Positions 62,455 through 63,522 of a DNA stretch of 64,000 bases are shown here, piece after piece. Numbering within the stretch: the stretch's first letter is position 1; the number at the start of each line of letters is the position of its first letter. The notes beneath the pieces were generated by a model that saw only the letters and a program-made list of their open reading frames with translations, did no database searches and had not been told where the DNA came from. The position numbers and the translations under genes are program-made. This DNA is from Dehalococcoidia bacterium (GTDB lineage: Bacteria; Chloroflexota; Dehalococcoidia; Bin125): assembly GCA_965207695.1 (NCBI GenBank), contig CBDBNA010000011.1:4193-68192 (forward strand), given 5' to 3'.

Positions 62455-63522
62455 TCAATCGGTCACCCGGACGCCGCCGCTCTCGGCGTCTGGCGAGGCT
62501 ACGACGGTCCCGACGCGCCAGTTGCCGATGCCGGCCGCTTGCAGCCGTGCGCCGAGCTCGGCGGCGGCGGACTCCGGCAGGACGATGAGCAGCCCACCGG
62601 TCGTCTGCGGGTCGTAGAGCAGGGTGTCCTCCAGCGAGGTGAGCGCGCGGGCCGTCGCGACGCGGGCCGAGAAATAGTCGCGGTTGTTCGCCTGGCCGCC
62701 GGTCATGAGGCCCTGCGCGACGCCGGCCTCGAGGCCTGGCAGGGCCGGCAGCGCGCCGAGCGACAGTTCGACGCCGACGCCGCTGGTCATCGCGACCTCC
62801 ACGGCGTGCCCGGCGAGTCCGAAGCCCGTCACGTCGGTGAGGGCGTGCACGGGCGACTCGCGCGCCAGCTCGGCCGCGCGTTTGTTCAACTCGGACATCT
62901 GCGCGACCACGATGGCCTCGTGCGCCGCCGGGACCTCGCCCCCGCGCATGCCGTTGAGCAGCACGCCCGTGCCCAGCGGCTTGGTCAGCAGGATGGCGTC
63001 GCCGGGCTGCGCGCGGGCCTTGCGGAGCACCGCCTCGGGGTGGGCGATCCCGGTGACGCAGAGACCGTACTTGGGTTCGCGGTCGACGATCGTGTGCCCG
63101 CCCGCGACGGCACCGCCGGCCTCACGCACCTTGCTCGCGCCCCCCTCCAGCACCGCCACGATGGTCTCGACCGGCAGATCGTCGGGGAAGGCGGCGATGT
63201 TGAGCGCGAAGAGCACGTCGGCGCCCATCGCGTAAACGTCGTTGAGGGCGTTGGCGGCGGCGATCTGACCGAACTGGAACGGGTCGTCGACGGTGGGGGC
63301 GAAGAAATCGAGCGTCTGCACGATCGCCTGATCGGGGTTGAGGCGATACACGGCCGCATCGTCGGCCTTGTTCAGCCCGACGAGCAGTTCGGGATGCTCA
63401 TGCTCCGGGAATTGATGTCCAAGCGCGCGCACGACCTGCGCGAGGGCCGCGGGCCCGTACTTCGACGCTCAACCGCCGCAGGTGGTGAGGTCGGTCAGCC
63501 GGACATTCTCTTGCTGGGCCAC
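62455..63522 (-). CDS. selD: Selenide, water dikinase SelD with an in-frame TGA (selenocysteine) at codon 18. The track ORF 62455..63432 is the part downstream of the TGA.
   Basis: The reading frame continues upstream of ATG 63432 through TGA (63469-63471) to GTG 63522, which is preceded by GGAAGGAGG. The translation VAQQENVRLTDLTTCGG-U-ASKYGP aligns with E. coli SelD [16 protein letters not shown]17GCK, placing U at Cys17. The downstream region contains a GGUC-loop hairpin. Confidence 0.75.

Follow-up and report, generated by a model that had tools for sequence, protein, structure and literature searches.

An in-frame UGA in selD of an uncultured Chloroflexota lineage is predicted to encode selenocysteine

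Selenophosphate synthetase (SelD) that contains selenocysteine (Sec) is textbook knowledge, and gene finders routinely cut the genes that encode it. The Aquifex aeolicus enzyme is one such SelD and was crystallised as a form with Cys at the Sec position (PDB 2yye/2zod). In SECIS elements of the E. coli fdhF type, a GCA/UGC stem with a bulged U carries an apical GGUC loop, some 18 nt past the UGA. In surveys of bacteria, no selenoprotein families are more widespread than SelD and FdhA (PMC1794560; for SelD likewise PMC13188914), and every Sec-decoding bacterium surveyed has at least one of the two (PMC1794560). SelD is the second largest prokaryotic selenoprotein family and is often mis-annotated (PMC13188914, PMC13326102). 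Sec-containing SelD genes are catalogued in bacterial selenoproteome surveys (PMC1794560, PMC13188914 and BSepDB, PMC13326102), and selenoproteins are already known in Chloroflexi/Chloroflexota (PMC1794560, Table 2; PMC13326102). In the literature on Sec use in sponge-associated or other Chloroflexota, we found nothing specific to the lineage described here.

We analysed a 64 kb stretch of DNA (hereafter the window) from an uncultured Chloroflexota lineage of 72% GC. On the evidence of its sequence and of related genes, we propose with high confidence that positions 62455-63522 form one gene, selD, which would encode a 355-residue selenophosphate synthetase (selenide, water dikinase) with a predicted Sec18. 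The parts of the gene and its leader are:

62455-63522, minus strand: the whole of the selD coding sequence, 355 codons followed by the stop TGA (62455-62457); codon 18 is the predicted Sec.
63520-63522, minus strand: GTG start codon of selD, kept in L082, L083, L084 and L086.
63528-63536, minus strand: Shine-Dalgarno sequence GGAAGGAGG, separated from the GTG by the 5-nt spacer CGGCG and invariant in five close relatives.
63469-63471, minus strand: in-frame UGA, the predicted Sec codon for residue 18, equivalent of E. coli Cys17.
63460-63462, minus strand: AAG codon for Lys21, equivalent of the catalytic Lys20 of E. coli SelD.
63430-63432, minus strand: internal GTG (Val41), the start chosen by the open reading frame (ORF) track, inside hairpin 2.

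Read from GTG 63522, selD gives VAQQENVRLTDLTTCGG, then the TGA at 63469-63471, which is the sole internal stop of the 355-codon frame, and then ASKYGPAALAQVVRALGHQF. The ORF track began the gene at GTG 63432, 12 codons past the in-frame TGA, and so reported a protein of 325 residues. The original prediction had held that the track mis-splits selD and that translation begins at GTG 63522, behind a ribosome-binding site with a 5-nt spacer. Start, ribosome-binding site and TGA were all found on the minus strand as claimed; the mis-split is likewise evident, as the track start lies after the UGA and the extension upstream of it corresponds to SelD profile positions 1-29. The GTG start and GGAAGGAGG are visible in the five closest relatives of the window gene. 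Upstream in-frame ATGs were rejected as starts because their frame is not conserved among relatives, which leaves GTG 63522 as the start of selD. The codon for Val41 is CTG in most relatives, and gene callers there pick other nearby codons as the start. Since selD and many of its neighbours end in TGA, an ordinary stop in this DNA, the internal TGA is not explained by an altered genetic code. We conclude that the 325-residue track ORF is an artefact of taking the UGA for a stop.

The leader of selD has features of its own. An imperfect inverted repeat, CGCGCCCCGGGTCGCGTGATCGGGGCGCG (63544-63572, minus strand), is conserved between a -10-like TAGAAT box (63578-63583, minus strand) and the ribosome-binding site; relative L086 has it as a perfect palindrome of 18 bp, CCGGATCGCGCGATCCGG. 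The repeat could serve as an operator or form a hairpin in the leader. A simple promoter scan returned no sigma-70 site in the leader. Just past the stop codon of the acyl-CoA dehydrogenase gene lies a tandem duplication of CCCGGTAGRATGG (63578-63612, minus strand), a sequence that is duplicated in the window, L084 and L086 and present as a single copy in L082 and L083.

Scored with the UGA written as Cys, the 355-residue product reached 359.8 bits against the selD model TIGR00476 (cut-off 125), matching over residues 8-319 and profile positions 1-310, whereas the 325-residue track ORF reached 332.8 bits and its match began only at profile position 30. The 30-residue N-terminal extension thus adds 27 bits and fills TIGR00476 positions 1-29; NF002098 gave 329 bits for the longer product against 309 for the shorter (cut-off 299). 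The best match among solved structures was E. coli SelD (3u0o; E = 3e-62, over residues 4-341). Because residues 4-24 align to it without gaps, the UGA codon falls opposite Cys17 and Lys21 opposite Lys20. The placement of the UGA at the Cys17 position, proposed from the window sequence, was in this way borne out, and the proposed alignment of the extended translation to SelD families succeeded from TIGR00476 position 1 onwards. In the structure alignment, the Aquifex SelD loop at the equivalent place reads SSGCAAK. At the level of DNA, A10 and A11 of the alignment that follows the UGA, which belong to the Lys codon, are invariant in 66 genes with TGA at residue 18 (Sec-type) and in 19 with a Cys codon there (Cys-type).

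The codon aligned to residue 18 was read in the DNA of 80 related loci from species-representative genomes. It is TGA in 61 of them and TGC or TGT in the other 19, so that every stop at this codon is TGA and every Cys codon TGC or TGT. Across 82 aligned genes the count is 63 TGA against 19 TGC/TGT, and both classes have common flanks, RLTxLxxCxG before residue 18 and A-S/A-K-x-G-P-x-A-L-A-Q-V-L after it. The nine closer relatives all carry TGA (the closest is L082; the others include L083, L084, L086, L087, L088 and L089). TGA is kept in relatives at 98, 94, 91, 82, 74, 70, 66 and 59% identity; the relative at 74% is L001, and the rest were recovered by exact protein look-up. The same kind of look-up gave no match for the 325-residue window ORF or for P0019. 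As judged from these alignments, the recurrence of an in-frame TGA at exactly the catalytic codon is far beyond chance, and the TGA/Cys pattern at residue 18 is, on the same comparison, the Sec/Cys pairing by which selenoprotein genes are usually recognised. The 63 to 19 count, the conserved flanks and the hairpins kept in TGA-type relatives (see below) all support the original prediction that this selD encodes a selenoprotein.

The closest public records of the window selD are 'Chloroflexi bacterium' metagenome-assembled genomes (MAGs), one of them named TK10-74A. All close relatives are recorded publicly as shortened proteins; GenBank MXY78907.1 (325 aa) and PZC48452.1 (320 aa) are such truncated calls, each starting at the first start codon past the UGA. 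In a protein search, most close homologues were annotated at 318-330 aa, with about 90% query coverage, and the full-length homologues, of 346-355 aa, carry SCAGCAAK.

Two further observations concern this region of the protein and its relatives. Codon 15 (63478-63480, minus strand) encodes a Cys three residues before the predicted Sec, forming a CxxU motif, C-G-G-U. Cys15 is kept in most Sec-type and Cys-type relatives within this subfamily (SCAGU or SCAGC) and is absent in E. coli (HGAGC) and Aquifex; it might serve as a resolving Cys. Separately, a locus labelled Candidatus Bathyarchaeia archaeon (L057) has a selD almost identical to those of the Chloroflexota loci L053 and L054 over the stretch compared, namely the N-terminal peptide and 66 nt after the UGA, including the bacterial-type arrangement of UGA and hairpins. 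Probably, L057 is a bacterial contig that was wrongly binned into an archaeal MAG.

The public annotation of every close relative agrees with the ORF track in treating the UGA as a real stop, which would leave a 17-residue peptide and, from GTG 63432, a separate 325-residue SelD that lacks the catalytic loop. Also in keeping with a real stop, searches of the 64 kb window turned up no Sec machinery: ARAGORN and Rfam searches returned no tRNA-Sec (the tRNAs there are tRNA-His and tRNA-Arg only), and tblastn with E. coli and Chloroflexota SelA and SelB detected neither selA nor selB (best E = 0.16). We nonetheless consider a real stop highly improbable. The 29 codons before GTG 63432 are conserved as SelD, at profile positions 1-29, in more than 80 genes from several phyla; the 325-residue product would be without the residues equivalent to Cys17 and Lys20; and no Shine-Dalgarno sequence is suitably spaced for GTG 63432, a codon that lies within a hairpin and is replaced by CTG in most relatives.

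Other searches of the window and its surroundings were also negative. Using tblastn, we found no match in the window to E. coli SelU or YqeB/YqeC better than E = 0.16. Further genes interrupted by UGA were sought twice across the window, with only adjacent genes in a common frame as the result, and selA, selB and tRNA-Sec were not found in the selD neighbourhoods, of about 20 kb, of nine lineage relatives. In one locus (L004, 19412-19569), ARAGORN called tRNA-Arg(TCT) three times, in overlapping positions shifted by 40 nt, which suggests that a tRNA gene contains a short tandem repeat or that the assembly is at fault.

Gene order around selD is conserved in the lineage, running from acyl-CoA dehydrogenases through selD and a DAO-family oxidase to recF. 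The oxidase gene (61127-62407, minus strand) is L-2-hydroxyglutarate oxidase-like (NF008726, 533 bits) and starts 47 nt past the selD stop, with recF following. The order selD, DAO, recF is kept in the lineage, and the more distant L093 likewise has a DAO gene near selD; the three genes are possibly co-transcribed. Elsewhere in the window, a second AIRS-superfamily gene (about 51900-52971, plus strand) scored below the cut-offs for hypE, thiL, selD and purM. Downstream of it come genes for a MoxR/ChlI-like AAA ATPase (53032-54459, plus strand) and a VWA/Mb0984-like protein (54482-56635, plus strand). This three-gene block, which has a chelatase-like look, is conserved in all lineage relatives, at a distance of about 9 kb from selD.

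Downstream of the UGA, two hairpins had been described in the original prediction, and both are present:

63444-63456, minus strand: hairpin 1, GGGCC-CGC-GGCCC, nt 16-28 from the U of the UGA, -7.9 kcal/mol.
63426-63442, minus strand: hairpin 2, CGCGCA-GGUCG-UGCGCG, nt 30-46 from the U of the UGA, -9.1 kcal/mol.

In hairpin 1 the stem is 5 bp long, the loop is CGC and a gap of 17 nt separates the UGA from the loop; hairpin 2 has a 6-bp stem, the loop GGUCG and a gap of 32 nt, its loop starting at nt 36 from the U. Published constraints for bacterial SECIS (bSECIS) elements specify a loop of 3-9 nt, a stem of 4-16 bp, a G in the first two loop positions, a distance of 16-37 nt from the UGA and a minimum free energy of -7.5 kcal/mol or lower (PMC13188914). 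Both window hairpins fall within these limits. In our own simplified implementation, so does a downstream hairpin at 18% of all UGA triplets in the window, which has 1128 of them at 72% GC. Folding the sequence after the UGA, the check that had been proposed, thus returned both hairpins at the energies given above, but the fold of the 72 nt after the UGA was no better than that of shuffled sequences (z = 0.18), a comparison that is uninformative in 72% GC DNA. Against synonymous recodings, the window selD gave z = -1.3 (p ~0.10), which is not significant. No Rfam SECIS family was detected by a gathering search of the whole window or a permissive search of 63350-63640, which returned chance-level matches only. 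Taken alone, the window hairpins are not beyond chance.

Conservation of the hairpins was assessed in ungapped alignments downstream of residue 18, comprising 66 TGA-type (Sec-type) and 19 Cys-type genes. The cells of hairpin 2 are paired in 83.5% of cases in Sec-type genes versus 43.6% in Cys-type genes, and at least five of its six core pairs form in 46 of the 66 Sec-type genes as against none of the 19 Cys-type genes (Fisher p = 1.6e-8). For hairpin 1, a stem of at least 4 bp forms in 53/66 Sec-type versus 8/19 Cys-type genes (p = 0.003). The two-hairpin structure, counting both helices, is 73.8% paired, compared with 31-50% in controls with slid partners. Double-sided changes occur in six of the seven hairpin-2 pairs among Sec-type genes, some of them synonymous (CAG/CUG to CAA/UUG) and others not (GCGCAG/CUGCGC to GCUCAC/GUUGAGC), and hairpin 1 adopts two registers, with GGGCC/GGCCC replaced by AGCGC/GCGCU in some lineages. 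The loop nucleotides G37 and U38 of hairpin 2 are nearly invariant across Sec-type selD genes. To separate constraint on the RNA from constraint on the peptide, each gene was recoded synonymously 300 times with codons drawn from its own selD usage; the mean z was -1.5 for Sec-type versus -0.12 for Cys-type genes (Mann-Whitney p = 2e-5). At the level of the family, these sequence comparisons indicate that the stem-loop is under selection for RNA structure and not for the peptide alone.

We favour hairpin 2 as the candidate SelB-binding SECIS and regard this assignment as the most likely one, because hairpin 2 separates Sec-type from Cys-type genes, has a nearly invariant G37 and U38 in its loop and shares GCA-GGUC-UGC with fdhF. 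Counting against it are the position of its loop, at nt 36 rather than nt 22 as in fdhF, and its absence from a few Sec-type genes: in place of hairpin 2, L010, L013, L061 and L073 have a longer form of hairpin 1 whose loop is CGGGY. Also counting against hairpin 2, the minimal fdhF hairpin lies at roughly the place that hairpin 1 occupies here. Hairpin 1 may be a spacer or auxiliary element, or the SECIS itself; the two hairpins may also act together, or their roles may differ by lineage. In most TGA-type selD genes of this subfamily, a register-flexible hairpin 1 precedes an fdhF-like GGU-loop hairpin that lies at a distance of about 32 nt from the UGA. That most TGA-type genes of this subfamily, in Chloroflexota and other phyla, share a distinct bipartite SECIS specific to selD is a tentative and rather doubtful proposal. 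Such an element, if real, might tune the insertion of Sec into SelD, the enzyme on which Sec synthesis itself depends for selenium.

Taken together, the comparative sequence evidence makes it very probable that the in-frame UGA of selD encodes Sec. Translation would start at GTG 63522 behind the strong Shine-Dalgarno sequence, and the frame would run through the UGA at codon 18. There, by analogy with known bacterial decoding, the UGA would not be read as a stop; a downstream mRNA hairpin would recruit SelB with Sec-tRNA(Sec), and Sec would be inserted. The product would then carry its catalytic Sec and Lys in a flexible N-terminal loop, C-G-G-U-A-S-K. The element bound by SelB would most likely be hairpin 2, with GGU in its loop, and hairpin 1, at the mRNA entry to the ribosome, could act as a spacer, as an auxiliary element or as the SECIS itself. 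If the UGA is read as Sec, the organism must encode selA, selB and tRNA-Sec, presumably elsewhere in its genome.

Among related loci, such genes do adjoin selD. Five Sec-type loci (L022, L049, L060, L064 and L073) have selA and selB within 10 kb of selD, except that only selA lies within the stretch fetched for L060, and tRNA-Sec is also near selD in L022, L049, L060 and L064, although not in L073. The presence of selA, selB and tRNA-Sec beside the selD of some relatives indicates that genes of this subfamily live in Sec-decoding organisms. Several Cys-type Chloroflexota loci also have tRNA-Sec, selA and selB directly upstream of selD; in L017, L032, L036, L044, L050 and L059 (Chloroflexota/Limnocylindrales), the three form a divergent cluster immediately upstream, at about 8-10 kb in each locus. 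From this cluster we infer that those organisms decode Sec yet keep Cys in their SelD.

The UGA might also be read through without Sec, with near-cognate tRNAs inserting Cys or Trp either constitutively or when selenium is scarce. SelB and tRNA-Sec are only inferred for the window genome, and Cys, encoded by 19 of 82 relatives, is functionally acceptable at residue 18, both of which would suit such a mechanism. Its probability is nevertheless very low. The fdhF-like GGU-loop hairpin is specific to TGA-type genes and absent from Cys-type genes, a pattern that points to SelB recruitment; related TGA-type selD genes adjoin selA, selB and tRNA-Sec; and we know of no bacterial mechanism of efficient non-Sec UGA readthrough for SelD. 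Least likely of all is that the TGA, one base from TGC or TGT, reflects a sequencing or assembly error, as the original prediction had itself considered, or a recent inactivating mutation in a pseudogene, and the comparative data have effectively refuted this, with the same TGA in independent assemblies of relatives at 59-98% identity and in 61/80 more distant loci, an intact frame and coding sequence conserved on both sides of the TGA.

Reading the UGA as Sec corrects the annotation, giving a protein of 355 residues with a predicted Sec18 in place of the catalytically headless 325-residue protein of public databases, and makes it probable that this uncultured high-GC Chloroflexota lineage is a selenocysteine user. 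Knowledge of selenium biology is unchanged by it: the gene is of a known kind and is wrong in the public annotation of the lineage. The 66 Sec-type and 19 Cys-type genes provide a clean comparative set for asking which downstream RNA features track the UGA.

Compared with known Sec-containing SelD, the window gene differs in nothing essential. Like the Aquifex aeolicus enzyme and other catalogued members, it belongs to the same enzyme family and has the N-terminal loop, with a UGA at the position of E. coli Cys17, a Lys three residues on and in-coding stem-loops just downstream of the UGA, and such genes are often shortened by gene finders, as here. What sets it apart is its origin in an uncultured Chloroflexota lineage of 72% GC and the lack of an adjacent selA, selB or selC. 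E. coli SelD (3u0o) shares with it the catalytic Lys and the conserved AIRS and AIRS_C domains; where the E. coli enzyme has Cys17-Gly-Cys19-Lys20, the window protein would have Sec18-Ala-Ser-Lys21, preceded at -3 by an additional Cys (C-G-G-U). In the MG1655 sequence, the E. coli fdhF SECIS has the apical sequence GCA-GGUC-UGC, which resembles GCA-GGUCG-UGC of window hairpin 2, but measured from the U of the UGA the loop starts at nt 36 in the window and at nt 22 in fdhF, 14 nt nearer. Unlike in fdhF, a second conserved hairpin fills the space between the UGA and window hairpin 2, and no bulged U like that of fdhF-type elements is evident in hairpin 2. These two conserved hairpins, with the fdhF-like loop set so far from the UGA, are the only mildly unusual aspect of the gene, and the diversity already known among bacterial SECIS elements probably covers them.
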